A DNA stretch of 32,000 nucleotides from Pyrobaculum calidifontis JCM 11548 (GTDB lineage: Archaea > Thermoproteota > Thermoprotei > Thermoproteales > Thermoproteaceae), in contig NC_009073.1 in assembly GCF_000015805.1 (NCBI RefSeq), positions 1,710,001 through 1,742,000 on the forward strand. The letters are read 5' to 3'. The position numbers and the translations under genes are program-made. Under the pieces are notes generated by a model. It was not told the DNA's origin and made no database searches. It saw nothing but the letters and a program-made list of their open reading frames with translations. Positions 9,853 through 31,999 of this stretch are shown here, piece by piece. The number at the start of each line of letters is the position of its first letter. Within the stretch, counting starts at the first letter, position 1.

Positions 9853-10878
9853 CTACCCCACGTCTACAAAAAGCGAGTAAAAATTCGCGAGGCCCGGCGT
9901 AAAGAGGCCAAGAGGCTCCCCATCAGCCGCCCTAAGCACATGCGGACAGGCGTCAGACAAAGGCCAGTCCAAGACAACGGAATTGGGAACATCCACCTCC
10001 ACCAACTGCGGAATCACAAAAGGCCTAGAACAGCCCCACCCCCGCACCTCCACCACAAGCCCCAGCCTCCTAGCCAAACCAGCCACATACCCCAGCAGAG
10101 CCTCCGCCACCCTCGCCCCCTCCTCTGCGCAAGCCACCAGCCTGGGGGCACCGCATGGGGACGCCGCTTCGTCCACGTCGCCTTGGAAAGGCTCTACCAC
10201 TCTCACATACCCCACCTCGCCGAACTCCGCCAGCGGGTTTTCCACTGTGGGCACGAACTTTGCGAGGTAAAGACCGTCGTCTCCCACGATGACCCAGCGC
10301 CGGGGCGCGCCTTCGGCCCCGTAGTCGAGCACCCCCAACACCCTGTGCCAAGCCAGCCACTGGCCCACCCGGAGGTAGCCGTTGCGCCGCCTAACCACGG
10401 GGAGCTCTTGGCCGAGGAGGGCTGTGCCTCTGCGCGGAAGAACGTGCTTCAGCCCCTCCCTACACCTCCGAAGAGAAATCAGCTCGTCATAGCTGTACTC
10501 CTCCACAGAAACAACCTCAAAACCCTCAGACACCGCCAACTTGTGCAAGATAGGGACAAAGTAGCCCCCCTCCGCCTCTATGTACATATCGCCAGACAAA
10601 AACCACCAACGCGTCGGCGCCCCAGAAGCCAGCAGAGGCGGCATACACCACGGCCTAAACTCAGCCACACCCCCACCCCACTCCCGCCCCTTCCAAAAAG
10701 ACTCCCTAAACCACCTAAGACGCCCAGCGCCACACCGCCTCATATTCTCCAACACGTCCACCATCCACTCAGCCCCCCAAAACACGCTCGTACAATAAGC
10801 CGCACCCACATAGCCGCCGCGCGCCACGCCGTAGACAAACCTATCATAAATCCTACAGCAACGCGCAATAGACGTCAT
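9853..10878 (-). CDS. uncharacterised family-1 protein, type A ('WHRVLGVLD-GDDGLY' core)
   Basis: ATG 10878 overlaps the stop of the upstream gene (ATGA at 10875..10878); the ORF track starts at TTG 10890. Shares a roughly 100-aa core and its C-terminal tail (RPFVIPQLVEVDVP..LDWPLSDACPHVL) with 24348..25304. Confidence 0.75.
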   Translation of the reverse strand: MTSIARCCRIYDRFVYGVARGGYVGAAYCTSVFWGAEWMVDVLENMRRCGAGRLRWFRESFWKGREWGGGVAEFRPWCMPPLLASGAPTRWWFLSGDMYIEAEGGYFVPILHKLAVSEGFEVVSVEEYSYDELISLRRCREGLKHVLPRRGTALLGQELPVVRRRNGYLRVGQWLAWHRVLGVLDYGAEGAPRRWVIVGDDGLYLAKFVPTVENPLAEFGEVGYVRVVEPFQGDVDEAASPCGAPRLVACAEEGARVAEALLGYVAGLARRLGLVVEVRGWGCSRPFVIPQLVEVDVPNSVVLDWPLSDACPHVLRAADGEPLGLFTPGLANFYSLFVDVG

Positions 10879-11939
10879 AAATGCCACCAATGAGCCCCCG
10901 GCCTATAGACACTACACGTATCCGCCAGCGGCCAGTCCAGCGCCTCTCTGCCTAGGGCCACCTCCTCTGGGCTTCCTAACAACACGTGCGGCACGCCCCT
11001 CTCCGCCTCGCATCTATGCCCCAAGCTTCTCAACAAGTCGGTGGTCTCTTCCGTACAGGCCACCAGCCTGGGGGCGCCACACGGAGAGGCGACGTCGTCC
11101 ACGTCCCCCTCGTAAGGCGCAACGACCTTCACGTACCCCACTTCGCCTATCTCCTCTAGAGGCTCCTTAGCGGTGGGCACAAACTCTGCAACATACAAGC
11201 CGTCATCACCCACGACTACCCACTTTTTGGCCGCCTCCCCGGGCTGGTAGTCCAACACCCCCAACACTCTATGCCAAGCCAGCCACTCGCCCACGCGCAA
11301 ATACCCAAGGCGCCTCCTCACCACTGGGAGCTCGGCGCCGAGGAGTGAGCCGCGGCCTGGAAGAGTGAGGGGTGGGCCGATGGGAGACACCACGAGGTTG
11401 TTTGCCTCGTAGGCAGTCCTGGGAGGGGGGCGGTAGAAGACGCACTTACACAAGCTGTAGTCCACCACATCCCCATAGAACCCATGCTGGCGCACAACTC
11501 TAAGCCCGCCCGGAGCCAGTACGTAGGCCACGTCGTCGGCCGGGGGGTACTTGAGGAAGTCAAAAAACTGAGCCACAGGCGCGTATACCCACCACCTAGA
11601 CCCCTCAATAGGCGGCACACAGAGGGGGCGAAAGCCCCCCTCAAAGACCCCCTCTACCACAAAGCCAAAAAGCCTCCACCAACGCCCGCCGAAGATGACG
11701 AAAGGCCTACCGCGGACGTACCCCTCGTAAGGCCACGGAGAAAAGACCTGCCCCACCAGCTCCAAAACCCTCACCCTCTTCTCGCCCCCAGGCACCACGT
11801 AGAAGACAAACCACTCCCCCACCCTCCCCACAAGGTCAGCCCAGCCCAAGTCCCACTCATCCGCATACTGAAGCAAGATGAGACGAGAAGAGCGGTAGAT
11901 AAACAGCTTAAGCTTGTAAAAAGGCGCCAGCGAAATCAT
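10875..11939 (-). CDS. uncharacterised family-1 protein, type B
   Basis: 354 aa. ATGA overlap with the upstream gene at 11936..11939. Collinear with 23014..24078, also 354 aa (CVPP..GSRWW, SPIGPP, core motif, LGHRCEAE, ALGRE..DWPL.DTC). Confidence 0.75.
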   Translation of the reverse strand: MISLAPFYKLKLFIYRSSRLILLQYADEWDLGWADLVGRVGEWFVFYVVPGGEKRVRVLELVGQVFSPWPYEGYVRGRPFVIFGGRWWRLFGFVVEGVFEGGFRPLCVPPIEGSRWWVYAPVAQFFDFLKYPPADDVAYVLAPGGLRVVRQHGFYGDVVDYSLCKCVFYRPPPRTAYEANNLVVSPIGPPLTLPGRGSLLGAELPVVRRRLGYLRVGEWLAWHRVLGVLDYQPGEAAKKWVVVGDDGLYVAEFVPTAKEPLEEIGEVGYVKVVAPYEGDVDDVASPCGAPRLVACTEETTDLLRSLGHRCEAERGVPHVLLGSPEEVALGREALDWPLADTCSVYRPGAHWWHL

Positions 11940-12973
11940 CTAAAACACCTCTCAACAGCCGACTTTAAATCCCTCTCGCCCTTAGGAACGTCGTCGAGCA
12001 AGACAAACCGCGCCACGAGCTGGCGGCCCAAGACCTGATACGTCACAAAAAGCGGCGCCACCCCCACCGACCTATCCAACGCCCTATGCCAGCGGAAAAT
12101 CTGCGACTCCACCCGCGGATAAGCCACGTACTCCAAGGCGCCGTAGCGCTCCGCCAAAGGAGCATCCACCGTCGCCCCCGACCCAGCATCCACCGCAAGG
12201 CCCACCAAGGCAACCCCCCGCCGAGTAAACCGCCGCCCATCAAAAAGCCCCTCCTCAACAAGGCGGTCCAGCTTACCCCTAAAGCCCCTGTACAAATCTT
12301 CAAACGTCCCGCCTTCCACCTTAGACACCTCAAGCCACAGAACCCGCCGGCCATCCTGCATAAGGCCAAGGGCATCTGGGCCATCCCCCCCCCCCCCCAC
12401 CTCAGACGGGAACTTGACGTTGACCACCTGCGGCAGAGGCCCGCCGTGGTACCTCAAGTTAATCACCTCCACCTCCCTAGAAAGCCTCGGCGCCATGGAG
12501 TACTGCGCCAAGTAGCCCCGGTTATACAACTCCTGCAGAAGAGCCACGTACCCCCCAACCCTAAACACCACCACCCCACGCCCCACATAGCCCACCCCCA
12601 CGGGAGGACGCCCACCCGCCTCCACAGCCGCCGCCAAGAGGCCCCACACACCCTCCCGCCCCAGCCTAACACCCTCAGGCTCCCTAGCCGCCAAAACCCC
12701 AAGCCCCACAAGCACATCCCACAGCCCCACACCCCCCACAAAGAGAGACTCCCTACCCCTAAGAGGCTTGAAGGGGATAACCCACGACGAGCCGCCCCCC
12801 TCCACCACCAACGCGTCCCCCACCACTTGTACCCTCGCCTCCGCGTGGGCCACGTGCTCTTGCGCCGCGCCGGCGGCACCTCTTTCAAACACCGCGAGGT
12901 CCGGCCAGTACAGGCGCAGGCGGCCCCCAGACGGCTCCCCCACCACCCGCCCCACCCCCAGCGACTTGTACAC
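11936..12973 (-). CDS. hypothetical protein homologous to the C-terminal third of the giant proteins; PD-(D/E)xK-like core
   Basis: 345 aa with a GTG start. GPDALGLMQDGRRVLWLEVSKV aligns with APDGLALANWNGWRVVWAEVARK (ORF 21003..22991) and LDLLGVGEGGRLVLGEVKAW (ORF 25556..28693). The tail W.RALDR..VAPLF..Y...AVERCFR* aligns with W.DAMDR.KVAPLL.VY...ALYNCFNK*. Confidence 0.7.
   Translation of the reverse strand: MYKSLGVGRVVGEPSGGRLRLYWPDLAVFERGAAGAAQEHVAHAEARVQVVGDALVVEGGGSSWVIPFKPLRGRESLFVGGVGLWDVLVGLGVLAAREPEGVRLGREGVWGLLAAAVEAGGRPPVGVGYVGRGVVVFRVGGYVALLQELYNRGYLAQYSMAPRLSREVEVINLRYHGGPLPQVVNVKFPSEVGGGGDGPDALGLMQDGRRVLWLEVSKVEGGTFEDLYRGFRGKLDRLVEEGLFDGRRFTRRGVALVGLAVDAGSGATVDAPLAERYGALEYVAYPRVESQIFRWHRALDRSVGVAPLFVTYQVLGRQLVARFVLLDDVPKGERDLKSAVERCFR
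12385..12398. repeat. C14/G14 homopolymer tract inside a CDS (in frame, encodes GGGG)
   Basis: Counted directly as 14 consecutive C on the plus strand. On the coding (minus) strand it reads gt[g ggg ggg ggg ggg g]at, giving VGGGGD. Confidence 0.9.
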
Positions 12974-16229: not shown

Positions 16230-16263
<34 letters not shown>

Positions 16264-19768: not shown

Positions 19769-19803
<35 letters not shown>

Positions 19804-19992
19804 TCCCCGAGACGAGGCGGCCGTTGCCCTGGGGGCAACCCCGGGGCACGAGGGCTCCCGTAGAAGACGGGGTTGATGGGGGGGCGGTGTAACCCCCGAG
19901 GGTTTCCCGAGGGGAGAGCCGGCCCCTCCCAATCGCCCGAGCGTGCGGGGCGGCGGGCGAAAGGGCTGAGGCGGCGGCGTGGGGGTTCCCCT

Positions 19993-20124
19993 CTGTTTTC
20001 CTCAAGTCCTCGCCTTTTGAAACCCGCTGGGGGTAGACGGTTGCTGTGTTTTCTAGCTTTCAACGGCGCGTTGATCCCGGCGTGGTATTTTGTACAACCT
20101 CTCGGCGGTTTTTTCGTATTTTTT
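19993..20124 (+). terminator. T-run cluster downstream of 23S (putative archaeal terminators)
   Basis: T4 at 19996..19999, 20015..20018 and 20049..20052. T6 at 20109..20114 and 20119..20124. Confidence 0.35.
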
Positions 20125-20161
20125 CAACGTATTGTTTAAATATTAGAGTTTGTCGGTGGGT

Positions 20162-21154
20162 ATGCGGGTTTGGTGGCTGGTCTTGTTGGTGGCTGTTCTG
20201 GTGTTGGGGGGCAACGTGGATACTAATGGGCTTGTTCTGTTTGTTAACGATACTGGGGACTACCGGGGTTCTTACTACTTGAAGGTGTTTGATCTTCAGC
20301 GGTGGTGGGATGCGGGGTATTCTCGGGTGTTGGTTAGGGCTTCTGTGGGGGCTGAGTGGGCCTTTGAGAGGGTTGAGGGGTCTGTGCTGGATTTTGCCTT
20401 GTTTTGGGAGGATTGTACTAGTTGCGACTCCGCAGAGCCTCCTCCTGTGAAGAACGTTAATACGATTTACGAGGACGAGATTTTGAGGGTGACTTATGTG
20501 GGTGGTAGGTGGGTTGTCCAGGTGCTGTGGCACCAGGGCGGGTTTACTCACTGGGTGTATGTCAACGGCTCTCTGTTTTTTACGCACTTCGGGGGGTCTG
20601 TGGGGGGCGGCCCCTCCGGCGAGTTTTTTGGGGAGGTTCTGCGGGTTGATCTTAAGTCCTCCGGCGATCCGAGGGCTGATTCCTACGCGGTGTTTTATTC
20701 TCCTGGGTATGCGTGTCGGTCTTTGTTTGGCTTGTTGGGGTGGGCGGCTGTGCATGGGCTTGACGCTGGTGAGGCTAGTGGGTTGTTGAGGAGTTTTGGG
20801 TACTCGCTTTCTGTGAAGAGGGTTGACAGGAGGGATGGAGTGGTTTTGTTTTTCTTGTCTAACGGCTCTGTGGTGGAGGTCCCTGTGTTTTTCGAGGTGC
20901 AGTCCAACGGGACGGGGCTTTTCGTGGTGGGGAACCCGTCGTGTGTCAACGCGACGTATGTCGCCGTGGTGAGGCTTTCGGGGGGGGGGGGGGGGGAGGG
21001 GGGTGCTGAATTTCAGCTTGTCGGTTGGGGCGTGGGACGCAGTGCTGGCGGCGCCGGCTGTTTGGCGGGGGGAGGAGGCGAAGTACGACGTCTCTCTCTT
21101 CCTCTACGCCCCGCCGGGGGCGTACTCGCTGGGGAACTTCTCGGTGTCTTTTGA
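20162..21154 (+). CDS. giant secreted/surface protein D, 5' fragment (frame broken at the G17 tract)
   Basis: ATG 20162 lies 23 nt after TATA tttaaatatt (20135..20144). Signal peptide MRVWWLVLLVAVLVLGG and N-x-S/T sequons (NDT, NGS, NGT, NAT). Residues after the G-tract (GAEFQLVGWGVGRSAGGAG...) look non-coding. Confidence 0.7.
   Translation: MRVWWLVLLVAVLVLGGNVDTNGLVLFVNDTGDYRGSYYLKVFDLQRWWDAGYSRVLVRASVGAEWAFERVEGSVLDFALFWEDCTSCDSAEPPPVKNVNTIYEDEILRVTYVGGRWVVQVLWHQGGFTHWVYVNGSLFFTHFGGSVGGGPSGEFFGEVLRVDLKSSGDPRADSYAVFYSPGYACRSLFGLLGWAAVHGLDAGEASGLLRSFGYSLSVKRVDRRDGVVLFFLSNGSVVEVPVFFEVQSNGTGLFVVGNPSCVNATYVAVVRLSGGGGGEGGAEFQLVGWGVGRSAGGAGCLAGGGGEVRRLSLPLRPAGGVLAGELLGVF
20980..20996 (+). repeat. 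G17 homopolymer tract (followed by a, then G6) at a frame junction
   Basis: Counted directly: g at 20980 through 20996, a at 20997, g at 20998..21003. Confidence 0.95.
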
Positions 21155-22991
21155 CAAGCCGCGGCTTGTGGCGGGGAACCGGTCTATCGTCATGAGGCCT
21201 CTCCACGCGGTGTTTCTGCCTCTTGAGACTAGGCGGCTGGTGGACGCCTATGGGCCGTGCAACGAGGCGTTTTGGAAGGCCTTCGACGAGGTGGCGGACC
21301 CGTACGACTACTCCCTCCTGGGCGACGTCGCGCTTACGGTTATACCAGTGGGGAGGATCGCCGGCTTTTTCGGGAAGCTCCTGGGCGTGGGCAAGGCGGC
21401 TGAGAGGGCTGAGGGCTTGATCTCGGCGTTGAAGACGGTTTACTACGCGCTGGGCTCTTCCAAGTGGGCTAGGGCTGTGGGGACCGGCGTCGGCTTCGTG
21501 CTCCGGGATGCGTTCATAGCGGAGGACTTGAGGCAGATCTTAGAGCCGGAGGCGGCCGAGGAGGTCTTCTCGGCGTTTGGGGTGGACTTGGCTGAGGTGG
21601 AGCGGTTCCACGCAGGGGTGCTGACGCGGTCTTCGTGTAGCCACGCGGGCAGGTACTACGCGGCTGTGTACGTGTCTTGGGCGCAGCGGGTGTCGGCGGT
21701 GGTGGACCTCGCCTCGAACCTATACGCCAAGGTGTCGAGAGACGCGCTGGAGAAATTCGGCAACGCCTTCGTCAAGGTGGCCGAGGGGGCTAAGCTGTTT
21801 TCGCACGTCACCCATGCCGGCTACGTCGCGGCGCGGGCGTGGGGGCCGCATGAAATTGACGAGGATACGTGGGCAAAGGCCTTTACCAAGCTGGCCAGGG
21901 CCCTCACGGGGAGAGACGACGTGGCGGCCGTGGTGGCCACGACCCCCAACGGAATCGTGACGTCTGATAGGCAGTTGCACATAATTCTCGGCCTTGACAA
22001 GAAGAAAGGTGTTAACTACTTCAACCCGGGGCGGGCTGGCCGGAGCGTAAGCGTTGGGGGCCTTGACGTGTTTTATGAGGAGGGCGGTGAAGAGGCCGGT
22101 GGGTTCTACTTGGCGTGGTATGAGAAGCGGAAGCTTGTTAGGTGGACGTCTCCGGAGTTCTTCGAGGTGCTTCAGCAGAATGGCCTTGCCTGGGTTCTGC
22201 GGAGCAAGTTTGAAATGCGGAGCGTGAGGGGCGTCCGCTACGTGTGCTTCAACTACGAGGTGGAGTACGACGACGCGTTGTTCGGCGCCTTTGCGAGCCT
22301 GGCGACTATCTCCCAGTGGCACCAGAAGCTCGCCGCTCTGCCTCTGTTTTGGCTTCTCGGCCCCAGAATAGACGTGGTGCAAGCCGCCTACGAGGTGGAC
22401 ATGGCCCCGAAGGACGTGGCCGTCAAGGAGCTGGAGGGGCCGGTGGGGATGCTGGGGCTGGTGGGGTATTGGGAGAAGACCAGCTACTACCTACGCGACA
22501 TGCCGGGGGTGTATGTCCATTTAAGAGGCTGGAGGACCGGGGGCGCCGCCCCCGACGGCTTGGCTTTGGCTAATTGGAATGGGTGGAGGGTGGTGTGGGC
22601 CGAGGTGGCGAGGAAAATCGACGAGACTGTTAACAAGTTTAAGAGCAACGCGGCTAAGTTGCAGGAGGCCGGCATCTTGGCTGGGGGCTCCTTTACTCCA
22701 TACGGCTTTGCCCTCGCCGCGTTTAGGGTGGACGCGATGAGCGGTGTCACTGCGGGGGGCAACGCCTTTGGCAGTAGCCCAGTGTCTGACAAAGTCTTGG
22801 CGCATCCCCAGGCTAAGAGCAGGCTGGTGGAGTGGGCTGACGCCATGGACAGGCACAAGGTGGCGCCCCTATTGGCGGTCTACGAGGGCGATGGGCCGAG
22901 CTTCAAGGTGCGCGGAGTCTTGTTTGAACAACTCGTCGACTTTGACGACCCGGAGGTGAGGGCAGCCCTCTACAACTGCTTCAATAAATAA
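21003..22991 (+). CDS. giant protein D, 3' fragment (PD-(D/E)xK-like core near the C-terminus)
   Basis: This frame is open from 20973 and continues the homology to paralogue G across the tract (VRLSGGGGG/RGVLNFSLSV vs LRLSNKTGSSGVAHGSRLSLTNV). It has a hydrophobic segment LLGDVALTVIPVGRIAGFFGKLLGV. APDGLALANWNGWRVVWAEVARK and the C-terminal tail are homologous to ORF 11936..12973. Confidence 0.75.
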   Translation: MLNFSLSVGAWDAVLAAPAVWRGEEAKYDVSLFLYAPPGAYSLGNFSVSFDKPRLVAGNRSIVMRPLHAVFLPLETRRLVDAYGPCNEAFWKAFDEVADPYDYSLLGDVALTVIPVGRIAGFFGKLLGVGKAAERAEGLISALKTVYYALGSSKWARAVGTGVGFVLRDAFIAEDLRQILEPEAAEEVFSAFGVDLAEVERFHAGVLTRSSCSHAGRYYAAVYVSWAQRVSAVVDLASNLYAKVSRDALEKFGNAFVKVAEGAKLFSHVTHAGYVAARAWGPHEIDEDTWAKAFTKLARALTGRDDVAAVVATTPNGIVTSDRQLHIILGLDKKKGVNYFNPGRAGRSVSVGGLDVFYEEGGEEAGGFYLAWYEKRKLVRWTSPEFFEVLQQNGLAWVLRSKFEMRSVRGVRYVCFNYEVEYDDALFGAFASLATISQWHQKLAALPLFWLLGPRIDVVQAAYEVDMAPKDVAVKELEGPVGMLGLVGYWEKTSYYLRDMPGVYVHLRGWRTGGAAPDGLALANWNGWRVVWAEVARKIDETVNKFKSNAAKLQEAGILAGGSFTPYGFALAAFRVDAMSGVTAGGNAFGSSPVSDKVLAHPQAKSRLVEWADAMDRHKVAPLLAVYEGDGPSFKVRGVLFEQLVDFDDPEVRAALYNCFNK

Positions 22992-23013
22992 ATCCTCCCC
23001 CGTTTTTCGTCTC

Positions 23014-24078
23014 ATGGTCGAGCTCTTGTTTAGGGAGTGGCTTGCGGTTCGGAACATCAACTCGATCAACGACTATAAGGGGCCGTGCTCCGCGGGGGAG
23101 CCGCCGTACGACGGGACTATCGCCCTCCTCGGGAGGGCTGAGGGGGGCTTCGTCCTCGCCGTGCACGCCTCCTCAAACCGCTACTGGTTTCGGCGCATAT
23201 CGCACCTCGTAGACGTGGTCAAGGAAGGCGGAAAAGACGAGATATCGTACGTCGTGTTTGAGGGCCTGGTCTGGGCCAAGCCGATGGTGTATTTGAAAAG
23301 GGGGAAGGCAATCGTTAGGCTCATTCTAGTTAGGCGCCACACAGGCGGCTTTAAGCCTAAGTGCGTCCCGCCGCTTGGCGGCTCTAGGTGGTGGGGATAC
23401 GGCAGCTTCTACGAAGACATGCAGAAAATGACGGGCCTCAGCTACCCAGTCGGCGAGGTCCAACTCTACGTCCTCACAGAGCGCGGCCTCGAAGTACAGT
23501 GCGAGTACTGCATGTACGAGCTCCAAGAAATTATCCTGAGCCCGTGTAAGTACGCCTTCGGCGGCAGATGGCTTCCCTACTCGCCGATTGGCCCGCCGGT
23601 GAGGGCCCCGGGCGCGGGATCGCTGACCGGCGCCGAGCTGCCGGTAATAAGGCATAGGGATAGATACCTCCGGGTTGGCAACTGGATAGCTTGGCATAGA
23701 GTCCTCGGCGTTTTGGACGACGGCCGCTGGGTTTTAATTGGCGACGACGGCCTCTACGAGGCGGTTTTTCAGCCAACTGTGAATAACCCGCTGGGGGAGT
23801 TCGGCGAGGTTGGCTTCGTGAAGGTGCTGGGCCCGTACAACGGCGACGTGGACGAGGTGGCCTCCCCCTGCGGCGCTCCTAAGCTGGTGGCTTGCAACGA
23901 GGATACTAGACACCTCCTAGAGCCCCTCGGCCACAGGTGCGAGGCAGAGGGGGCCCACGTGACTCTGGTTACGAACACCCCGGTAGCGCTTGGCAGGGAA
24001 GTCGTCGACTGGCCGCTTACAGACACCTGCGGCCCTCTGCTGAGGCTAGGCGACGTGGACCTCTTCACCTGGGACTAG
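23014..24078 (+). CDS. uncharacterised family-1 protein, type B (second copy)
   Basis: 354 aa. The ATG lies 26 nt after TATA aataaataaat (22983..22993). Collinear with 10875..11939. Confidence 0.8.
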   Translation: MVELLFREWLAVRNINSINDYKGPCSAGEPPYDGTIALLGRAEGGFVLAVHASSNRYWFRRISHLVDVVKEGGKDEISYVVFEGLVWAKPMVYLKRGKAIVRLILVRRHTGGFKPKCVPPLGGSRWWGYGSFYEDMQKMTGLSYPVGEVQLYVLTERGLEVQCEYCMYELQEIILSPCKYAFGGRWLPYSPIGPPVRAPGAGSLTGAELPVIRHRDRYLRVGNWIAWHRVLGVLDDGRWVLIGDDGLYEAVFQPTVNNPLGEFGEVGFVKVLGPYNGDVDEVASPCGAPKLVACNEDTRHLLEPLGHRCEAEGAHVTLVTNTPVALGREVVDWPLTDTCGPLLRLGDVDLFTWD

Positions 24079-24347
24079 GGGCTGGCGGCAATCACTGCCG
24101 GCCTCGGCCGGCTGGTTAGACGCCGTCCTGAGTCAGGGAAACTCGGAGGGGCGTCCTTTACTGACACCCCGGTCTGATCTTCCGTCGGTCAAGACGCGTA
24201 AAATCTTGATGCCTGTCAGTCTGGTCAGGACAGGGGACGTGGAGCTGGCTTTTAGCCGGGCAAACGCGGCGGCTGTAGCCGCCGGAGCGGCCCATCGCCG
24301 GTCTGCCGCGGGCCGACAAGTTTATATTTTCGGCTGGCGGAGTTGGT

Positions 24348-25304
24348 ATGGCCGGCTGGAGCTACGTGGTGGGGAGACTCCCGCGGGGGGATCTGGTGTA
24401 CCGTTGCTACCTCAGTTTCTATAAGGACTCCTTCTACTGGGAAGGCTCTCTGGAGTGGTGGCGGCAGAATTTTAGGCTTAGGGTGATCCCCCGCGGCGAG
24501 AAGGACGACACGTATTGGGACGGCGACTTGCGGGGGTTTAGGGCGGCTTATGTGCCTCCGATGCCGGCGGGGGGCGGGTTTTCGCGGTGGTGGTGGCTTT
24601 GGGGGGTCTTCGCCTACGAGGGGCCTTTGGGGGTTTCCTACGTGGGGCTTGGGGGGGCGGCGGTGTCTGAGGGCTTCACGGCGGAGCGGCTTGGGGTTGA
24701 GCTAGAGGTTGAGAAGCTAGCTGGGCTGAGGGTGCACGGGGCTGGGGGCGGGGAGCTGGCCGGGGCGGAGTTGCCGGTGGTGAAGGAGAGGGGTAGGTAT
24801 CTCAGAGTGGGCAGGTGGCTCGCGTGGCACCGGGTGGCCGGCGTGCTTGAGGGCGGCAGGTGGGTGATCTTGGGCGACGACGGCCTCTACGAGGCGGAGT
24901 TCGTGGCCACTGCCAAGAACCCGCTGGAGGACTTCGGGGAGGTCGGCTTCGTGAAGGTGCTGGCGCCTTACGGAGGCTCTGAGCAAGACGTCGCCTCTCC
25001 CTGCGGCGCGCCTAGGCTGGTGGCGTGTAACGAGGAGGGGCTGAGGGTGGCCGGCGCCGTGTTGGACTACGTGAGGAGGGCGCTCAGGGAGGCGGGGGTG
25101 GAGGGCGTAGACCTCTTCGTCCCGTCCTCTTGGCGCTGCGCGAGACCTTTCGTCATCCCCGAGCTCGTGGAGGTGGACGTCCCGGACGAGGCGATCCTCC
25201 ACTGGCCCCTCGCTGACCCTTGCCCCCACGTCCTTAAGGTAGCCGCCGGCGACCCGCTAGGCCTCACGACCCCCGCCACGTGCTTCATGTGCTGGGAGTG
25301 GTGA
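24348..25304 (+). CDS. uncharacterised family-1 protein, type A (second copy)
   Basis: 318 aa. The ATG lies 23 nt after TATA tttatatttt (24321..24330). Collinear with 9853..10878 (RPFVIPELVEVDVPDEAILHWPLADPCPHVLKVAAGDPLGLTTP). Confidence 0.8.
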   Translation: MAGWSYVVGRLPRGDLVYRCYLSFYKDSFYWEGSLEWWRQNFRLRVIPRGEKDDTYWDGDLRGFRAAYVPPMPAGGGFSRWWWLWGVFAYEGPLGVSYVGLGGAAVSEGFTAERLGVELEVEKLAGLRVHGAGGGELAGAELPVVKERGRYLRVGRWLAWHRVAGVLEGGRWVILGDDGLYEAEFVATAKNPLEDFGEVGFVKVLAPYGGSEQDVASPCGAPRLVACNEEGLRVAGAVLDYVRRALREAGVEGVDLFVPSSWRCARPFVIPELVEVDVPDEAILHWPLADPCPHVLKVAAGDPLGLTTPATCFMCWEW

Positions 25305-25555
25305 TGGAGAGGCCTTACAGCCGCTGGTTCGGCGGGTCGCCTCTGCTCATACACGGGCCGCGCGGCGGGGCTTAAGTCCGGGGAGGGGCGGTGCGGTGGG
25401 GAGGGCGGGGCGGAGGCGCGTGCTTGCGGTGTACGGGGAGGGGGCGGAGATCTTCGTCGAGCGGTCGCTGAGGGGTTGCTCGCAATGAGGCGGGGACCGC
25501 CTGGCGGCTGGGGGCTTCTTGTCACCAAGACCGGCGGCGCGGGGGCTATTCTGCC

Positions 25556-28500
25556 GTGCCTCTCGGCGTTGATTGCGGCATCCTCTCCGACTCCACGTCG
25601 TCTGCTTTTGTTCAACTTCTCGTCGAGTTTTTCGTTTTAACTGTTTTCAGCAATTATGCGAGTTACGGTTTTCGGGTATTCTCGGGGTTCTCCTCCTGGC
25701 CTTGTCGGCCTTGGCGTATAACGTCTTCTGGGGGGAGTTCGTCCACTGCGACGTGGGGTCTTGCCCGTATCCAAACCCCGAGGGGAAGTTTCTCGAGGTG
25801 GGGCCTAACTACGCCGTCTTTGACACTCGGGGTGACCCCTCGGCGATGGGGGTTCTTCGTGTTGGCCGTTGAGTTTAAGAGACACACGACGGTTACAATC
25901 CAGGGCTGGTGGTCTTATGAACTCCCGCGGACTTTGGCTTACGTCGTGTCCGACAAGGGGCTTACGGCTTTTGAGTGCTCCACAGGCGGGGGGCAGCAGT
26001 GTAGCGTCTCCGGCGCGGCGGCCCCCGGCGTTTATTATATCGTATTTGTCGACGCGTGGGCGGCGCAGACAGTTAGAGTGGAGGCGGACGGCCCGCTCGA
26101 CCTTATAGACGTCTCGCCTCAGCGCGTTGCTTGCGCCCTCTGGAGGGCCGGCGTCTTGAGGGGACAGCGCATAACATACGCCTTTAACTGGCCGTCTAGG
26201 CCCGGCGCCTCTGTTTCTCAAGATATTGTGGAGGGCTCTTGCGGCCCGCCCGATTTGCAAGAGGCCCTGGCCTTTGCCGCCGCGGCCGGGCTCAACGCGA
26301 CGGAGGCCTCCCTCCTCACGCGTCCGCTGGGCTACAACGTGACTGCAGTGGAGAGGAAGTACGGCTCCGCCGTGTTTTACCTCCAGCCCGACCTCACTTA
26401 CGTAGTGCCCCTGGCTCTTGAAGTCCAGTGGCCTAACGCGGGCCGGCTCCTCCTCGTCAACCCGAGCAACGTCTCAGTCACGTGGGCCGTGGAGCTACGC
26501 CTTTCTAACAAAACGGGGAGCTCCGGCGTTGCCCACGGGTCGAGGCTGTCTTTAACAAACGTCACGCTCCCGCCGCGCTCTGTCTACGAGCTGTACCTCT
26601 ACGGCGTTGCCAGAGAGGGGGGCTCTTACGTCTTTTCCTACCGGATTCGGGCGGCGGGTAGTTACAGCTGGAGCAATTACGTTTTTTACACAGAGGGCCG
26701 GCTTGTGACGCAGAACGGCTCTTTCCTCAACTGGCTTTGGGGTAGGCTGGAGCAGTTCTGGGGCGGCGTGACTGGGGATAAATGCGCCGAGGCGCGGGGG
26801 GCTGGGAGGAGGTGGGCGGCGGAGCGGATTGGCTTGGCGGGGGTGGTGACTGAGCTGGATGCGGCGGCGGGTGGGGCGGCGCTTGTGACTGGGGGCTACG
26901 GCGTTGTGAAGGCCGCCGCCTCGGGGGCGAGGGCGCTGGACCTTGCGGCGTCTGTTGCCAGGGGGTACAGGGGGGCCGTGGGTGTCCTGCAGTTGGCGGA
27001 CCTCTTGGCCAACGGCGTGGCGCTGGGCTTCGACGTATACGTAGACGTGTCTTCGGGGCGGGTGGACTGGGGTGACGTGGCCAGTGCGGCTTTCCTCGCG
27101 GCTGGCCCGGCGGCTCAGAGGGTTAGGTTTGTTCAGGGGGCCCTCGCGGCGAGCGGCGCCGTGGCTCTGTACCTGGGCCAGCCGCTGGACTTGGCTGCCC
27201 AGCTCTCCTCTGACCTCGAGGCCGCGGCTTCGGCCTACGGTCAATACGCACAGTGCTTCAGGGATGGGGCTCTCCAGGCCTTTTCCACCTTCGCGGTGGA
27301 GGTTGAGGTGGCTAGGTGGGTGGGCATTGCCTCTTCGCTTGGCGACGTGGCGACTGCCGTGGGGAGGGCCGCTGGGAGTAGGGGGTGGGAGGCCTACCGG
27401 CAGCTCGCCGCGCTGGCCGCCTTCAAGTACAAGACCCCCTTTCCCTTATACAAGTACGACAGGTCCTCAGAGCTGATGCGTTTTGTAGAAAGGCAGAAAG
27501 GCAAATTCGACGTCCTCGCAATAGACGTTAGAAAATTCGCCATAGACCAAGAAGGCAAGCTCGTGTTCCTAGAACTCACAAAAGACGGCGGACTCAGAGT
27601 AAAGAAGAGAGAATCTACTAGTGTATTTGAAGGGGAGAAGATAACTCTCGACACAGGTGAAGTCACTTTCGCAATCTACAGGAAGCGTGGGGGCCACGAC
27701 GTTGGTATGGTTTTGTCTGTTGGTGGTGTTAGGCTTGGCACTTATGTGGGTCTTGGGCGTATGGTGGGGTTTGCGGCTTTGGCTAAGGACTCGGAGGTTC
27801 AAAAGGCGAGGGTCAAGGTCGTCGGCCGCGACGCCGAGGTCTACAGGTTTACGCTGGACTTGGAGAGGTACGGCCTCTCGATAGTAAAAGACGAGAAGAA
27901 TGATAAGTACTACGTCGACGTCGGCGGTGGGGCCAGGATCCAGGCCCATACCCCGGTTAAGGACTTGGCGGGCGCGCTCATGGTGGCGCTGGGCAAGACG
28001 CAGCCGAGCGCCATAGCCTCTGAGGTCTCGCTACCTACGCCAGACTACCTTGAGCTTGTACGTCTACAATCTACATTTGGTGAAGAGATTGCCGCCGCCT
28101 TTAACATTGAGAAAAAGGAGTCGCTAACAGCCGCTTGGCTAAAGCTAGGCGACCCAGAGGAGGGAAAGATGCCTCTCAGACTAGACTTGTTGGGCGTCGG
28201 CGAGGGCGGGCGGCTCGTGTTAGGTGAGGTAAAGGCGTGGGACGAGGATCCAGACGCTTTTGGAGGCCACTTTGCGGCTATTGACAAGTGGGAGAGGGCG
28301 TCTGGGGAGTACGTCCGCTACCTCGTAGATGCGTTTAATGGGAGGGCGTACGGCGGGGAGGGGGCCTACTCTGTCTTTGCCTGGCCTGGGCCTATGCCGC
28401 CTGTGCCCGATCTGCGTGGGCCATACCTCTTCGCCTATGGGAAGTACAAGGTGGTGGGTGGCAAGATTGAGGTGTACGTCGTCTTCGTAGAGGCTACGCG

Positions 28501-28693
28501 GGGCGAGCTCACTGACGACGACTTCCTCAAGCGGCTCGACGCAGAGGCCAAAGACGCCGTTGAGGCCATAAGCACATGGGAATACGTCGGCCGCCTCGGC
28601 GACATGATCGCCGACAGGCTGGCCGCCGGCGGGGCGCTGGGGGAGCTGGCCGCCCAGCTGCTGAGGACAGGCGGCTATCCAGCCGCCTCTTAG
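25556..28693 (+). CDS. giant protein G (paralogue of D); the 5' end is probably frameshifted, the true start probably ATG 25656
   Basis: The body from about 25853 is homologous to D. It is rich in N-x-S/T sequons, has an Ala/Gly-rich hydrophobic middle, and a C-terminal LDLLGVGEGGRLVLGEVKAW (D-x13-E-V-K). The first about 100 codons of the listed ORF look non-coding. The signal peptide and first conserved block lie in other frames. Confidence 0.7.
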   Translation: MPLGVDCGILSDSTSSAFVQLLVEFFVLTVFSNYASYGFRVFSGFSSWPCRPWRITSSGGSSSTATWGLARIQTPRGSFSRWGLTTPSLTLGVTPRRWGFFVLAVEFKRHTTVTIQGWWSYELPRTLAYVVSDKGLTAFECSTGGGQQCSVSGAAAPGVYYIVFVDAWAAQTVRVEADGPLDLIDVSPQRVACALWRAGVLRGQRITYAFNWPSRPGASVSQDIVEGSCGPPDLQEALAFAAAAGLNATEASLLTRPLGYNVTAVERKYGSAVFYLQPDLTYVVPLALEVQWPNAGRLLLVNPSNVSVTWAVELRLSNKTGSSGVAHGSRLSLTNVTLPPRSVYELYLYGVAREGGSYVFSYRIRAAGSYSWSNYVFYTEGRLVTQNGSFLNWLWGRLEQFWGGVTGDKCAEARGAGRRWAAERIGLAGVVTELDAAAGGAALVTGGYGVVKAAASGARALDLAASVARGYRGAVGVLQLADLLANGVALGFDVYVDVSSGRVDWGDVASAAFLAAGPAAQRVRFVQGALAASGAVALYLGQPLDLAAQLSSDLEAAASAYGQYAQCFRDGALQAFSTFAVEVEVARWVGIASSLGDVATAVGRAAGSRGWEAYRQLAALAAFKYKTPFPLYKYDRSSELMRFVERQKGKFDVLAIDVRKFAIDQEGKLVFLELTKDGGLRVKKRESTSVFEGEKITLDTGEVTFAIYRKRGGHDVGMVLSVGGVRLGTYVGLGRMVGFAALAKDSEVQKARVKVVGRDAEVYRFTLDLERYGLSIVKDEKNDKYYVDVGGGARIQAHTPVKDLAGALMVALGKTQPSAIASEVSLPTPDYLELVRLQSTFGEEIAAAFNIEKKESLTAAWLKLGDPEEGKMPLRLDLLGVGEGGRLVLGEVKAWDEDPDAFGGHFAAIDKWERASGEYVRYLVDAFNGRAYGGEGAYSVFAWPGPMPPVPDLRGPYLFAYGKYKVVGGKIEVYVVFVEATRGELTDDDFLKRLDAEAKDAVEAISTWEYVGRLGDMIADRLAAGGALGELAAQLLRTGGYPAAS

Positions 28694-28735
28694 CCGGCCC
28701 GCGAGGGGCTTTTAAAGACGGCCCATTTTTTGTAC

Positions 28736-30781
28736 ATGTTCATGAGAAATACCGGGTGCCGCTTCCGAGCAAAGAGGGGGCGGGGGGAGCTGGTGTTTGA
28801 GGGCGTGGGTGGCGCCCACTACTACATGGGGTGGTGCCCCTCCAGCGAGGCTGTGGTGGCTATTCGCCGGGCTTCTCTGCCTCTCGCCATTGATAGAGAG
28901 GTGTGCCCCTCGGGGTACTGCCCCGTGACGTGTACAAACTGGGAGAGGGAGGCGCCCATCCTCTTGCTCAGCGGCGGTGGTGTGAGGGCCTTTGGCATCG
29001 GCGTAGGCCGCATGGTGGGGGAGGTGCACGACCTCCCAGTGCCCCCAGTCCCCTACGAGGACTTGGAGACGGGCGAATTGGGGTGGACTAGGCTTGTCCC
29101 CGACTTGGTGTTGGAGGACGTGCTCCCCTGGCAGGAGGCTAGGAAGATCTGCAGGTACCCAGAGCACTGCCAGCCGGCCCTCGTTGGCGAGGGGGGCTTG
29201 GTCAAGTCCATCGGCGACATACCCACCAGCTTTGCCCACGTCGCAGACTGCTCCTACGAGGGCTTCTCCCTCCTAGCCGCCCGATACGAGCCAGGCAACT
29301 TCGTCAAGGTTGAGGAGGATCTGTACTGGATAAGACACGAATACGCAGAGTGGGACGACCCGCGTTTCCCCGGCCTCGGCCGCCTCTTGGGGGAGGAGTT
29401 TCGGGTTAAAGAAGTCGAGGGTGACTACCTCCGCCTAGTGGGCCGCGGCGGCGATGAGCACATTGCGTGGGACTTTGTGTTGGGGGTGCTTGACTCTGGG
29501 GAGTGGGTGGTCATGGGCGAGGATGGTCTCTACTTGGCGGAGCATAGGGGTGGGCGCGTCGTCGTAACGGCGCCTTATCGGGGGCCGCTCATAGACGTGA
29601 GAGGGCCTCCCTCCCTCTACCCCCTCTTCTCGTACCGCATCCCCAGCGTTAGGAGGGCGGCTGAGCGGGTGGAGAGGCTCTTGGGCAAGTCCCTCAGAGA
29701 GCTGTTGGACGAGGAGGTTCCCAACCCCGAGCTCTACCTAAGGTGGCCCCTTGTGAGGAGGCGGTGGCAGTTCAAGGTGGTGCTTCACTACCCCTACCGC
29801 AACTACCTCTACCGCTTCCGCTACGTCCCGTCGGAGGATGGGCCGTTGTATGTCGTGTACAAGTTTGAGCCCAAGCTCCTTATCCCTCTGGGCGTTAGAA
29901 AGTGCCGTGTGGGTGTATCGGCGCAGGAGAGGCCGGGCCACGTGGCCGTCTCTATGGGCGAAGATCCGTGGGATAAGTACTGCCTCACCCTCGTGGACGG
30001 GGAGGGCAAATTCTACGTGGCTGTGTCTGCCGACCCCTACGACTGGCAGAGGTGGCTTCGGCCGCTCTTCACAGCCCGCGCCCCTCCGGCGGACTTCCCC
30101 TCCACGCCGCTCCCCACGGGGGACGGGTGGAGTAGGCTTGTCCACCCGCCTGAGCCGTTCCTCGACTTCCCCGACCCCATCCCCTACAACCCACACTGCG
30201 CCAGCTACTACGGCCACCTCCCCGGCAACTGCCAAGCCGTTGGGTCAAAATTCCCCGTAGCTCTTGGGTCAAGATACCACGAGACAGCTGGGTCGAGGTT
30301 CCCTGGGCGAGGCCGCCTCGTGGGCGAGGAGTTCCGCATAAAGGAAGTGGAGGGCGATTACCTGCGCCTTGTGGGGAGGGGTGGGGATGAGTACGTGGCG
30401 TGGGACTTCGTCTACGGGGTGTTAGATACTGGCGATTGGGTCCTCATGGGTGGGGACGGTCTCTACTTGGCGGAGCTTAGGGGCGATAGGATAGTTGTCG
30501 TGGCGCCGTATGGGGGGCCTGTGGAGAGGGTTAGGGGTCCTCCCTACGGCCTTCTCTACCCGGTTGTGGTGGGTGGGGTGGTGAGGTGGCCGGGGTGGGC
30601 TCCGCGGGTTGAGGTGGACCCGTGGTTGCTTTTGAGGTGGCCTCTTGTCTTGCCGGGGTGGGAGGTGGGTGGGCTTGAGTTCTACGGGGCCTACGGCTTG
30701 GGGCTTGTGGGGAGGGGCGTGAGAGTGAGGAAGGTGGAGGCTGAGAAGATATGGCTGAGGGAGATAGACGCTAAGTATTAA
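28736..30781 (+). CDS. uncharacterised family-2 protein with internal tandem duplication (two 'GDYLRLVG...GDGLYLAE' modules)
   Basis: ATG 28736 lies 23 nt after TATA cttttaaag (28709..28717). The two repeats (about 29374..29610 and 30297..30540) are about 75% identical at DNA level by eye. Each is followed by an LRWPLV motif. Confidence 0.75.
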   Translation: MFMRNTGCRFRAKRGRGELVFEGVGGAHYYMGWCPSSEAVVAIRRASLPLAIDREVCPSGYCPVTCTNWEREAPILLLSGGGVRAFGIGVGRMVGEVHDLPVPPVPYEDLETGELGWTRLVPDLVLEDVLPWQEARKICRYPEHCQPALVGEGGLVKSIGDIPTSFAHVADCSYEGFSLLAARYEPGNFVKVEEDLYWIRHEYAEWDDPRFPGLGRLLGEEFRVKEVEGDYLRLVGRGGDEHIAWDFVLGVLDSGEWVVMGEDGLYLAEHRGGRVVVTAPYRGPLIDVRGPPSLYPLFSYRIPSVRRAAERVERLLGKSLRELLDEEVPNPELYLRWPLVRRRWQFKVVLHYPYRNYLYRFRYVPSEDGPLYVVYKFEPKLLIPLGVRKCRVGVSAQERPGHVAVSMGEDPWDKYCLTLVDGEGKFYVAVSADPYDWQRWLRPLFTARAPPADFPSTPLPTGDGWSRLVHPPEPFLDFPDPIPYNPHCASYYGHLPGNCQAVGSKFPVALGSRYHETAGSRFPGRGRLVGEEFRIKEVEGDYLRLVGRGGDEYVAWDFVYGVLDTGDWVLMGGDGLYLAELRGDRIVVVAPYGGPVERVRGPPYGLLYPVVVGGVVRWPGWAPRVEVDPWLLLRWPLVLPGWEVGGLEFYGAYGLGLVGRGVRVRKVEAEKIWLREIDAKY

Positions 30782-31634
30782 CGGTTGCTAGCTTTGCCTT
30801 GTACTTCTTGTGTAACAGCTGGGCTAGGCGGACTGCGTATTGGCCGGGGGTCCCCCTGAACGCGGCCAGCGGCCACCTTGTGGCTATGTGAAACACCTCG
30901 TCGTCGCGGACACAGACCTCGCTGTCGCCAACCTGGAGGGCGCCCAGGGGGCAGTTTGTCTTTACAGAGGGGGTGCTTGGGAGGACGTCGCCGAGGAATG
31001 GGGGCCCCTCCACAGCCCTAACCTCGCCCCAGTAAGGCCCCTCCACCACGGCGTACCCCACCCTCCCGCTGGGCCCCACGTCTTCTATAAATGCCGCAGT
31101 GTAGAGGCCGTCTTTGCCCATGAGGACCCACCGGTCGCCGACGGTGCCTAAGACAAAGCGGAACGCCGGCACGACACCCTCTGGCGATTCCATCTGTAGA
31201 TACTCGCCCTCAATGGCGTATACGGCGAAGCGCTCGTCCAAGTGGGCACCGCGGCCGGGGACGCGGACACGGGAGAAGATAGACCAAGGCCCCTCCACCC
31301 CGTAGCGCTTTAAGACTGGCTTGAGGTACTCTACGAGGTATCTAGCCGACGTCGCTTGGTACATGTCGTAGGGGGACAGCCTGTCTCCGGCCTTGAGTGG
31401 GAGTCTGAAAGGCCCGCCGGAGGCAGAGGGGTAGGCCAGGTAGGCGTTGGTGAGGTCTAAAACTCTGAGCAGGGAAGAGAGGTAGTCTTCAAAGACGAGG
31501 AGTGGGACAGCCCTACACCCGGGGAAGTAGCGACAGCGCCCCTCCACTCCCACCCCTAGGACAACTACCCTCGACCAGCCGTCGGATCGCTCGTTGTACT
31601 GCCTCGGGTATAGGCCGTAGACTACAGAGGCCAT
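30771..31634 (-). CDS. uncharacterised family-2 protein (single module)
   Basis: IEGEYLQMESPEGVVPAFRFVLGTVGDRWVLMGKDGLYTAAFIEDVGPSGRVGYAVVEGPYWGEVRAVEGPP ... TRWPL. The likely start is ATG 31634 (MASVVYGLYP...); the ORF track starts at GTG 31685. Convergent with 28736..30781, overlapping by 11 nt. Confidence 0.7.
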   Translation of the reverse strand: MASVVYGLYPRQYNERSDGWSRVVVLGVGVEGRCRYFPGCRAVPLLVFEDYLSSLLRVLDLTNAYLAYPSASGGPFRLPLKAGDRLSPYDMYQATSARYLVEYLKPVLKRYGVEGPWSIFSRVRVPGRGAHLDERFAVYAIEGEYLQMESPEGVVPAFRFVLGTVGDRWVLMGKDGLYTAAFIEDVGPSGRVGYAVVEGPYWGEVRAVEGPPFLGDVLPSTPSVKTNCPLGALQVGDSEVCVRDDEVFHIATRWPLAAFRGTPGQYAVRLAQLLHKKYKAKLATVNT

Positions 31635-31999
31635 TTCAAAACCTCTCGGCCCCTCTCCACAAGCTCCCCCGCCTCGTCCTCCCACAGAGCCAAGTTATCC
31701 CCCATGTAGAAGCCCCCGGGGAACCTGCACCCGCTGGCCACCTCGGCCACCCTCTTTGTGCATAGTACGAAGGGCGGCAGGTCTGAGGGGCCCTCCACCT
31801 CTCTCACGTCGCCTCGGTAGGGCTCTTCCACCACGGCGTAGCCGACTCTGCCTCCAGGCCCCTCGGCCCTTTCGAAGCGGGCGAGGTAGAGGCCGTCTTT
31901 GCCCATGAGGACCCACCTGCCGCCGACAGTGCCAAGCACCACGTTGACGGCGAAGTCGAGCCCCCAGGGAGACTCCATCTGAAGATACTCACCCTCCAC
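31622..31999 (-). CDS. uncharacterised family-2 protein, 5' end outside window
   Basis: EGEYLQMESPWGLDFAVNVVLGTVGGRWVLMGKDGLYLARFERAEGPGGRVGYAVVEEPYRGDVREVEGPS ... LKWPL*. The frame is open to the window edge. Tandem with 30771..31634. Confidence 0.7.
   Translation of the reverse strand: MEGEYLQMESPWGLDFAVNVVLGTVGGRWVLMGKDGLYLARFERAEGPGGRVGYAVVEEPYRGDVREVEGPSDLPPFVLCTKRVAEVASGCRFPGGFYMGDNLALWEDEAGELVERGREVLKWPL

Follow-up and report, generated by a model that had tools for sequence, protein, structure and literature searches.

Gene arrangement of the region

We analysed a stretch of 32,000 nucleotides from the genome of Pyrobaculum calidifontis JCM 11548 (the window, with positions counted from its first nucleotide) that covers the region around Pcal_1869-1874. 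The main subject is a pair of large genes, D and G, together with a family of downstream genes, termed here the E-family. An rRNA operon is situated in the middle of the window (16S, 14191-15689; 23S, 15738-19952). To its right D (present as two open reading frames, ORFs), E, F, G and H follow each other on the plus strand, after which I and J lie on the minus strand; to its left gene C and then two E-family genes are found on the minus strand. P. ferrireducens shares the array rRNA-D-E-F-G-H with the window. Exact look-up gave the tags Pcal_1869, 1870, 1871, 1873 and 1874.

The main ORF of G (Pcal_1873, 25556..28693, +) has 1045 codons; it is annotated as 'conserved hypothetical', and the RefSeq product of 944 aa begins at an internal start. 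D consists of an N-terminal ORF (Pcal_1869, 20150/20162..21154, +), which encodes the signal peptide MRVWWLVLLVAVLVLGG and the first part of a module named NMOD, and of a C-terminal ORF (Pcal_1870, 21003..22991, +), which encodes the domain DCT (22365-22985) with a PD...EV motif at 22548-22616. Two full-length E-family genes come after D, namely E directly (Pcal_1871, 23014..24078, +) and then F (Pcal_1872, a tag assigned by position only, 24348..25304, +). The gene after G is H (Pcal_1874, 28730..30781, +), which contains two copies of the E-family core, at 29360-29608 and 30275-30541. I (30771..31685, -) and J (31622..31999, -, cut by the end of the window) are E-family paralogues on the opposite strand.

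Gene C (WP_193322677.1, 11936..12973, -) carries a stand-alone DCT (11939-12529) behind a unique N-terminus of 148 aa, and neither a signal peptide nor NMOD was found in it. The E-family gene directly downstream of C (10875..11939, -) is 50% identical to E, and the second one (9853..10890, -) is 48% identical to F. C and these two genes (9853-12973, -) form an inverted and diverged counterpart of E, F and the end of D (20150-25304, +). Since this trio mirrors the end of D, E and F across the operon, the rRNA genes are flanked by an ancient inverted duplication.

Scanning D, G, C, E, F, H and I against Pfam, NCBIfam, PADLOC and PHROGs gave nothing above threshold, and a literature search for the locus tag Pcal_1873 found nothing.

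Shared modules of the D, G and C proteins

The first-pass annotation of this DNA had put D, G and C into one family, which is too strong as an overall statement. D and G do have N-terminal blocks in common (BLASTP, 36% identity over 80 aa, E=1e-8), and a comparison of family profiles extends these to a sequon-rich module of about 165 aa, NMOD, that is common to the G-type and the D-type proteins (G aa 195-364 versus D aa 185-351; probability 97.6%, E=5e-12, 162 columns; 26240..26746, +, in G). What had been called a shared N-terminal half thus amounts to this module, and the other N-terminal and middle parts of the two proteins do not align. C and D share their C-terminal approximately 150 aa, including the W..VAPL..Y..C tail (BLASTP, 31% over 159 aa, E=3e-15), i.e. 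a common domain of about 150-200 aa that we call DCT. The C-terminal block of G gave no match to D or C in an all-against-all BLASTP comparison, and the link between the C-terminal domain of G and that of D and C consists of a weak, collinear profile similarity.

The three nuclease-like motifs on which the grouping had been based do occur in the sequences (G, 28178-28240; D, 22548-22616; C, 12382-12317 on the minus strand). We note that a loose D-x12-16-EV-x0-2-K pattern is also found in 13%, 16% and 4.5% of the shuffled sequences of G, D and C, respectively, so the motif alone is no evidence, and only its conservation in relatives can be used.

The named relatives come mainly from Pyrobaculum and Thermoproteus. 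Scanning one genome per species for the G-type NMOD gave five loci, all of them in Pyrobaculum or Thermoproteus, and one weak, partial match in a metagenome-assembled genome (MAG) of Planctomycetota (42% over 38 residues, E=2e-4). A PDB profile search with NMOD gave no meaningful match. A viral or mobile origin was considered and rejected: no relatives of NMOD or E were found among the IMG/VR viral contigs, and the synteny on the side of the rRNA genes is kept across species.

Exchange of C-terminal regions among strains

One of the related loci, the MAG locus L001, matches positions 16339-26871 of the window at 99% identity, except for a 639-bp insertion in its 23S gene. At position 26871 (+), which corresponds approximately to codon 439 of G, the DNA similarity ends abruptly, and here we place a recombination breakpoint. 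The same course is seen in a comparison of G with the relative P0017: the two proteins are 100% identical over aa 1-360, 35-50% identical over aa 420-600 and 15-36% identical afterwards. Another relative, P0018, combines the N-terminal part of G with a further, different type of C-terminal region. The D-type proteins also include mosaics, some of which differ in the first 180 aa (P0006, P0014) and some of which diverge in the last 340 aa (P0009, P0010). In other words, the divergent C-terminal halves behind a conserved N-terminus that had been noticed within the window are indeed swapped at a sharp junction between strains that are 99% identical.

The C-terminal domain of G

The C-terminal domain of the G-type proteins, termed GCT (27944..28660, +), is PD-(D/E)xK-like. 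In G its conserved residues are a Glu (28022-28024), an Asp (28184-28186), a Glu (28226-28228) and a Lys (28232-28234), all on the plus strand. A profile search of 1.84 billion representative proteins returned only 29 relatives. We used an alignment of 17 GCT sequences that, apart from three close relatives, are 23-33% identical to G; the alignment suggests that there are several divergent groups. Lys95 is found in all 17 sequences, and each of Glu25, Asp79 and Glu93 in at least 90% of them. The residue pattern was confirmed in eight further copies of the locus, and one orphan copy is without the Asp. The acidic residues and the Lys of G are, in short, kept in divergent orthologues and in further loci. 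Strict conservation of Glu, Asp, Glu and Lys at 23-33% identity argues for retained catalysis.

The AlphaFold2 model that was built from the 17-sequence alignment has a predicted local distance difference test (pLDDT) score of 80 and a predicted TM-score (pTM) of 0.77, with a core above 90, whereas an earlier model from five sequences was unusable (pLDDT 42). In the model three consecutive strands, at residues 60-64, 76-84 and 88-96, precede a long helix and another two strands. The second of the three begins with Asp79 and the third contains Glu93-x-Lys95, i.e. the strands bearing the Asp and the ExK are adjacent.

When the model was compared with the PDB using Foldseek, no match fell below E=1e-3, and the best was only 1e-2. 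The top 20 are mostly PD-(D/E)xK proteins, namely RecB, RecE, Cas4/ACE1, MGME1, lambda exonuclease, AdnAB, SSO0001 and BsaXI. The viral library BFVD gives matches of this kind too, the best being Exonuclease VIII (E=9.7e-4, probability 0.91); RecU, Cas4 and an alkaline exonuclease come next. The TM-scores are low, at most 0.25, and every single match lies under the usual level of significance. Profile comparisons give a similar picture. NucS_C is the sole Pfam family that is matched by more than one GCT member (2 out of 17 sequences), and it is matched over the D...ExK strands; the match is below threshold (best E=8.7e-4, 15.7 bits as against a cut-off of 24 bits). Against PDB profiles GCT matches 4qbn, a VRR-NUC nuclease (E=0.38), and 2vld, NucS (E=0.89). 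G has no Pfam or NCBIfam match above the cut-off, so there is no significant match to a curated PD-(D/E)xK family.

The suggestion that the C-terminal block of G has a nuclease-like fold thus holds up on the conserved E...D...ExK residues, the order of the strands and Foldseek lists that are dominated by PD-(D/E)xK proteins, with single matches that are weak. On the whole, GCT most likely has a restriction-endonuclease (PD-(D/E)xK) fold with a retained active site.

Among known nucleases, the C-terminal domain of NucS/EndoMS and the Hjc-type minimal nucleases have the same arrangement as GCT, i.e. h-D-h-h-x(8-10)-G-x-h-h-h-h-E-h-K on two adjacent strands, plus an upstream Glu. Unlike NucS, GCT lacks the NucS N-terminal domain and a PCNA-binding motif, carries a conserved (F/Y)NG(A/G)G motif of its own, is extended by helices at its C-terminus and is fused to an exported protein.

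A second string resembling D...E-x-K, FDVLAIDVRKFAIDQEGKLVFLELTKD, is present at about aa 640-670 of G (window about 27470-27560). The relatives P0019 and P0021 have not kept it, which makes a second active site improbable.

The C-terminal domain of D and C

In the nine DCT sequences that we compared, the Pro-Asp and the Glu-Val are invariant. The Lys that completes the motif in the window, and that had been taken as part of a shared nuclease core, is replaced in the orthologues (EVA, EVE, EVD, EVG, EVS). DCT has no Pfam match. It holds the same position in NMOD proteins as GCT and is followed by the same partner family, which gives indirect support for a homology of the two domains. A relationship of DCT to GCT, with DCT as the diverged and probably Lys-less member of the pair, is plausible.

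A natural deletion variant is known among the D-type relatives: in the 624-aa protein P0013, found on a 19-kb contig, about 300 aa of the middle are missing, and the N-terminal part with the Ala/Gly-rich region is joined straight to the PD motif of DCT.

The E-family partner genes

E, F, H (with two cores), I, J and the two genes downstream of C belong to one family. Its named relatives come nearly all from Pyrobaculum, and no Pfam, NCBIfam, PDB, PHROG or PADLOC match was found for it. The distribution of the family was mapped with hidden Markov models in the window and in 13 related loci.

In all five examined cases a gene with NMOD and DCT is followed by two full-length E-family genes (D-E-F in the window, L001, L004 of P. 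ferrireducens, L005 and L006, and L013), and C is followed by the same pair. Genes with NMOD and GCT are followed by E-family cores, of which there are two in the window (H) and in L001/L002, L003 and L004, and three in L012. In L008 and L009 one core comes after each incomplete G-type gene. An E-family gene is adjacent in every examined locus in which the contig continues. Orphan copies of GCT, in L004 (a fragment at 16875-17312) and in L008 (4545-5210), are also followed by E-family cores. Together with C and its two E-family genes, these are stand-alone C-terminal domains that have partner genes of their own, as orphan toxin-domain/immunity cassettes do.

Inspection of the N-termini revealed no signal peptide in the E-family proteins. 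The first-pass annotation had pointed to small paralogous genes downstream of D and G; such genes are found beside both types of C-terminal domain, but a tight co-variation of the C-terminal domains with the downstream E-family genes was looked for and not seen.

L012, from Pyrobaculum sp. WP30 (CP012158.1, 737716-752219), contains two tandem G-type genes. The second of these is an intact ORF of 970 aa with a canonical signal peptide, and three E-family core genes come after it.

Export signals and topology

Signal peptides are canonical in D and in the intact G-type orthologues. As had been proposed, N-x-S/T sequons are enriched in the first approximately 360 aa, where sequons account for 8 of 13 Asn (D) and 6 of 14 Asn (G) as against about 1.4-1.9 expected, an approximately 5-fold enrichment in the N-terminal third. 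The remaining approximately 600 aa contain none; for five D-type proteins together, 0 sequons compare with about 5.5 expected.

The sole strongly hydrophobic segment is the signal peptide. The Ala/Gly-rich region that had been described as following the N-terminal part is present and has marginally hydrophobic segments that are conserved (e.g. aa 385-407 of D, and PLAAVLAGGGAVMLYLG in the G-type), but it does not make a convincing transmembrane helix. It is marginal on the Kyte-Doolittle scale, and internal segments such as LLGDVALTVIPVGRIAGFF score between +4 and +7 kcal/mol on a simplified Hessa scale; a transmembrane reading was accordingly set aside. The sequence data fit full export of the protein, and a marginal membrane span with a cytoplasmic C-terminus is also possible.

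Disrupted reading frames and poly-G tracts

D and G had been presented as intact proteins. Both are frameshifted in this genome. The two frames of D are separated by a G17-A-G6 tract (20980-21003), whose G17 part (20980..20996, +) splits the gene, and GenBank also lists two genes, Pcal_1869 and Pcal_1870. In MAG relatives the tract is G7-A-G6 and is read through as ...RLSGGRGVLNFS..., which leaves an intact protein (P0097: 939 aa with a signal peptide). D as a single protein is therefore not what is encoded here, where two ORFs lie in different frames.

In G the ATG at 25656 is in the third frame, the hydrophobic core ILGVLLLALSALA in the second and the main ORF in the first. The ancestral start and signal peptide (MRVTVFG and ILGVLLLALSALA, followed by YN; 25656..25722, +) are thus out of the main frame. 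To join the start to the main ORF, a +1 shift after seven codons is needed, plus a second shift at a G5 run (25847..25851, +) that has one G more than L001 (G4). The shift after codon 7 is also present in the 99%-identical L001, and P0017 reads GDPSAMGFFVLAVEF in frame across the G5 region. Pyrobaculum sp. WP30, a complete genome, has an intact G orthologue of 970 aa that starts with MRFLLLLLVLLAVFVSA followed by YNVFWGEF. On this evidence the signal peptide that had been given for G, 'MRVT..ILGVLLLALSALA', spans frames in the present genome and describes the ancestral state. Sequencing error was rejected as the sole cause of the frameshifts, since independent assemblies carry the same split products.

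The only homopolymer runs of at least 8 nt in the window are the G17 of D and a G14 in C (C14 on the plus strand, 12385..12398; gene on the minus strand), which is translated as GGGG directly ahead of the PD motif. The G14 does not put C out of frame. Assemblies of C elsewhere have GGG at this site (P0090) or a product of 141 aa that starts just downstream of the tract (P0091). In the 11 of the 13 related loci that were scanned, the sole long run is a G11 (L008, 277-287), which lies shortly before the called ORF, at the 5' end of a G-type gene. Every long poly-G run found (G17, G14 and G11) is thus on the sense strand of a D-type or G-type gene, and tract lengths vary among assemblies. Intact copies occur in several MAGs and in Pyrobaculum sp. 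WP30. The pattern of disruption is compatible with on/off switching by slippage as well as with loss in culture.

Interpretation of the locus

The reading that we favour, tentatively and at a little under even chances, is that the locus is a Pyrobaculum/Thermoproteus-specific polymorphic-toxin-like module, consisting of a putative nuclease-fold effector and cytoplasmic partner proteins that are candidates for immunity. D and G would then be two types of one conflict module. An intact member, of about 940-1010 aa, would consist of a Sec-type signal peptide, a sequon-rich part with NMOD that is probably N-glycosylated and extracellular, an Ala/Gly-rich helical region and a C-terminal domain of either type. 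GCT would be an active metal-dependent nuclease and serve as the effector; DCT would probably be a distant relative that lost the Lys, and may be inactive or use another active site. Recombination among strains exchanges the C-terminal two thirds of the G-type proteins together with the genes that follow. The E-family proteins may bind and neutralise (or regulate) the domain that precedes them, which makes them the immunity candidates, and stand-alone modules that lack the N-terminus, C and its two E-family genes among them, are orphan cassettes. Both large genes are off in this genome, with D split by G17 and G without an in-frame signal peptide, and slippage in poly-G may act as an on/off switch of expression. 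The architecture, the conservation, the breakpoint, the synteny and the frameshifts can be read from the sequences; we infer that the protein is exported as a whole, that GCT acts as a nuclease, that it reaches other cells, that the E-family confers immunity and that phase variation takes place.

Bacterial polymorphic toxin systems with C-terminal toxins of the restriction-endonuclease fold (CdiA-CT, Rhs, Tox-REase) were reportedly described by Zhang, Aravind and co-workers in 2012. The Pyrobaculum module is like them in several respects. It has an export signal and a conserved N-terminus (signal peptides, and identical first 360 aa), though the signal of G is out of frame here; its C-terminus is replaced at a discrete, sharp breakpoint and ends in a predicted nuclease fold; small genes for apparently cytoplasmic proteins lie immediately downstream, and orphan C-terminal modules come with downstream genes of their own. 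It differs from them in that there are no RHS/YD, FHA, LXG or other known trafficking or repeat domains, in that the swapped region is about 570 aa here as compared with 100-250 aa, and in that a single E-family, more conserved than the putative toxin domain, stands after all C-terminal types. The host, moreover, is a hyperthermophilic crenarchaeon, and we know of no delivery route in such a host. The earlier suggestion of a polymorphic-toxin-like locus is, in sum, strengthened by the breakpoint in G, the downstream partners and the orphan modules, and weakened by the lack of a tight co-variation.

A number of observations weigh against the toxin-like reading. The first group concerns the partners: E-family cores are 39-72% identical between loci as compared with 32-39% for the GCT domains that they follow, and they are in this respect unlike cognate immunity proteins, being the more conserved of the two; one partner family for all C-terminal types is also unusual for polymorphic toxins. 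The second concerns DCT, which has no conserved Lys near the motif in the comparison of nine sequences and so lacks a hallmark residue of PD-(D/E)xK nucleases. Its best PDB profile match is a YVTN beta-propeller repeat at the level of a 'PDG...DG..vyv' motif, which we treat as a motif-level likeness because DCT has a single copy. HHalign links DCT to GCT with a probability of only 11-22% (score 28-31). The alignment runs collinearly over 75-112 columns and matches the Asp and the Glu of one domain to those of the other; the score is above those of all 100 column-shuffled controls (12.8 +/- 2.5, maximum 21.8), which is a lenient control. Thirdly, the lack of sequons in the C-terminal part also fits a cytoplasmic location, and searches of Pfam, NCBIfam, PADLOC and PHROGs found no delivery or translocation machinery, no repeat filament (RHS, FHA) and no processing motif. 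Finally, the disruption of D and G in this genome may be simple decay, and disruptions are seen in other species as well: P. ferrireducens has a frameshift at a G7 run in its D-type gene (L004, about 8392) and an in-frame TAG in its G-type gene, and the annotation of P. oguniense divides the D-type gene into three pieces.

A more ambitious form of this reading would make the locus the first polymorphic nuclease toxin/immunity system of the Thermoproteales, in which an exported glycoprotein would deliver a PD-(D/E)xK domain into neighbouring archaeal cells, the E-family, as a new partner family, would confer immunity, the Ala/Gly-rich helices would serve as a new kind of translocation region across the tetraether membrane, and poly-G tracts would switch the genes. 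We consider this full scenario unlikely.

That the genes are decaying relics, both here and in other cultured Pyrobaculum, with poly-G tracts and frameshifts that reflect ordinary slippage in an organism with a tendency to homopolymer errors, no regulated switch and nothing functional made from D or G in this strain, is a less probable account than the toxin-like module, though one to be taken seriously. It agrees with the split of D at G17, with the two frameshifts of G, with the recurrence of the same splits in independent assemblies and with the disruptions in P. ferrireducens and P. oguniense. It does not agree well with the intact copies in several MAGs and WP30, or with the in-frame state of C, and the good conservation of the domains and the synteny of the array between species mean that somewhere the family is under selection. 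In any event decay concerns expression in the strain and not the function of the family, and is therefore compatible with any of the other readings.

The same sequon distribution that leaves room for a cytoplasmic C-terminus would suit a membrane-anchored sensor-effector. In such a protein the glycosylated part would be outside, one of the Ala/Gly-rich helices would span the membrane, and the nuclease-like domain and the E-family proteins would be cytoplasmic, so that binding of a virus or a cell on the outside would release or activate the nuclease (defence, abortive infection or signalling). Apart from the confinement of sequons to the first approximately 360 aa, partners that appear to be cytoplasmic, conserved marginal hydrophobic segments and neighbouring ATPases of families that are often found in defence loci are in keeping with this. 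The energetics are not: no internal segment is predicted to insert (+4 kcal/mol or worse on the simplified Hessa scale), and the candidate segments contain Asp, Arg or Lys. PADLOC gives no match either, and a swapped C-terminus behind a constant outer part is the reverse of what would be expected from a receptor that evolves against viruses. We regard this alternative as doubtful.

The closest published archaeal analogue of the Pyrobaculum module in concept is VARTIG of the Thermococcales, a large secreted protein built of Ig domains with a recombining C-terminal Ig domain, which was likened to polymorphic toxins and whose function is not known (Makarova et al. 2021, PMC8416519). Searches of other archaea in that study, which were based on the Ig domains, reported none resembling VARTIG (PMC8416519). 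Both are lineage-specific archaeal modules with a large secreted protein, a recombining C-terminus and variable downstream genes. The resemblance is one of organisation only: the variable end is nuclease-like here, and no Ig, CARDB or PKD Pfam matches were found in D, G and the downstream genes, nor any Ig domain in the PDB profile searches.

With VARTIG in mind, D and G could also be variable surface or self-recognition proteins with no toxin role, whose C-terminal domain would be a binding or structural domain that has kept no more than the fold of a nuclease, and the E-family proteins would be partners in assembly or regulation. The layout matches that of VARTIG (large secreted protein, recombining C-terminus, variable downstream genes, one lineage; PMC8416519), the D/C-type domain is without the catalytic Lys, and the E-family does not co-vary with the C-terminal domain. 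Two things speak against such a role: GCT has strictly kept its Glu, Asp, Glu and Lys, and the E-family proteins lack export signals and thus could not meet an extracellular domain after its export. We rate a pure surface role as quite unlikely. Least probable is a secreted or surface nuclease that degrades or takes up extracellular DNA as a nutrient, with no part in conflict. A signal peptide and a nuclease-like domain would suit it, but the strain-specific swapping of C-termini, the cytoplasmic partners beside every C-terminal domain examined and the orphan modules would all be left unexplained.

As regards the possible switching, the poly-G tracts are comparable with the homopolymer contingency loci of bacteria: long runs of G are located inside the coding regions of surface or conflict genes, and their length varies by assembly and sets the frame. 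The likeness is limited, as the switching is a candidate only and one of the disruptions found in other species is a nonsense codon, a mark of decay and not of a switch. Instability of mononucleotide runs is said to have been noted in Pyrobaculum aerophilum by Fitz-Gibbon et al. in 2002.

To our knowledge almost nothing has been established by experiment on how hyperthermophilic crenarchaea fight or recognise each other. The locus described here is a concrete candidate in this regard, given that it offers a nuclease-like domain with four residues to address, an adjacent partner, natural variants with swapped ends and on/off alleles. If the toxin-like reading is true, polymorphic-toxin biology would extend to the Thermoproteales, and it would have to be asked how a protein domain gets through an S-layer and a tetraether membrane at about 90 C. 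NMOD, GCT, DCT and the E-family, which are named and bounded here, are absent from Pfam, NCBIfam, PHROGs and PADLOC, and the genes examined are annotated as hypothetical. Should the reading fail, the locus would still be a clear case of recombination-driven mosaicism and of gene disruption by homopolymer tracts in Pyrobaculum.

Surroundings of the locus

Neighbours of a kind often found in defence loci lie beside the module, on the minus strand at 4995-9839. The gene at 6269-7861 has an AAA_5 domain, an ATPase class that includes McrB, and is followed by an ORF of 425 aa without a Pfam match. The gene at 8820-9839 (-) has AAA_15/AAA_21 ATPase motifs.

The 23S gene (15738-19952) is about 1.2 kb longer than the Rfam model and thus carries intervening sequences. 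One ORF within it (17632-18180) encodes a LAGLIDADG_3 homing-endonuclease domain, and a further ORF is found at 18450-19175. The extra 639-bp insertion in the 23S gene of L001 is at window position 19448/19449, so the intron content varies among strains.

GC skew is between -0.39 and -0.43 to the left of the rRNA operon (12000-14000) and between +0.1 and +0.36 to the right of it (20000-31000). The skew tracks gene orientation, i.e. the sense strands are G-rich.

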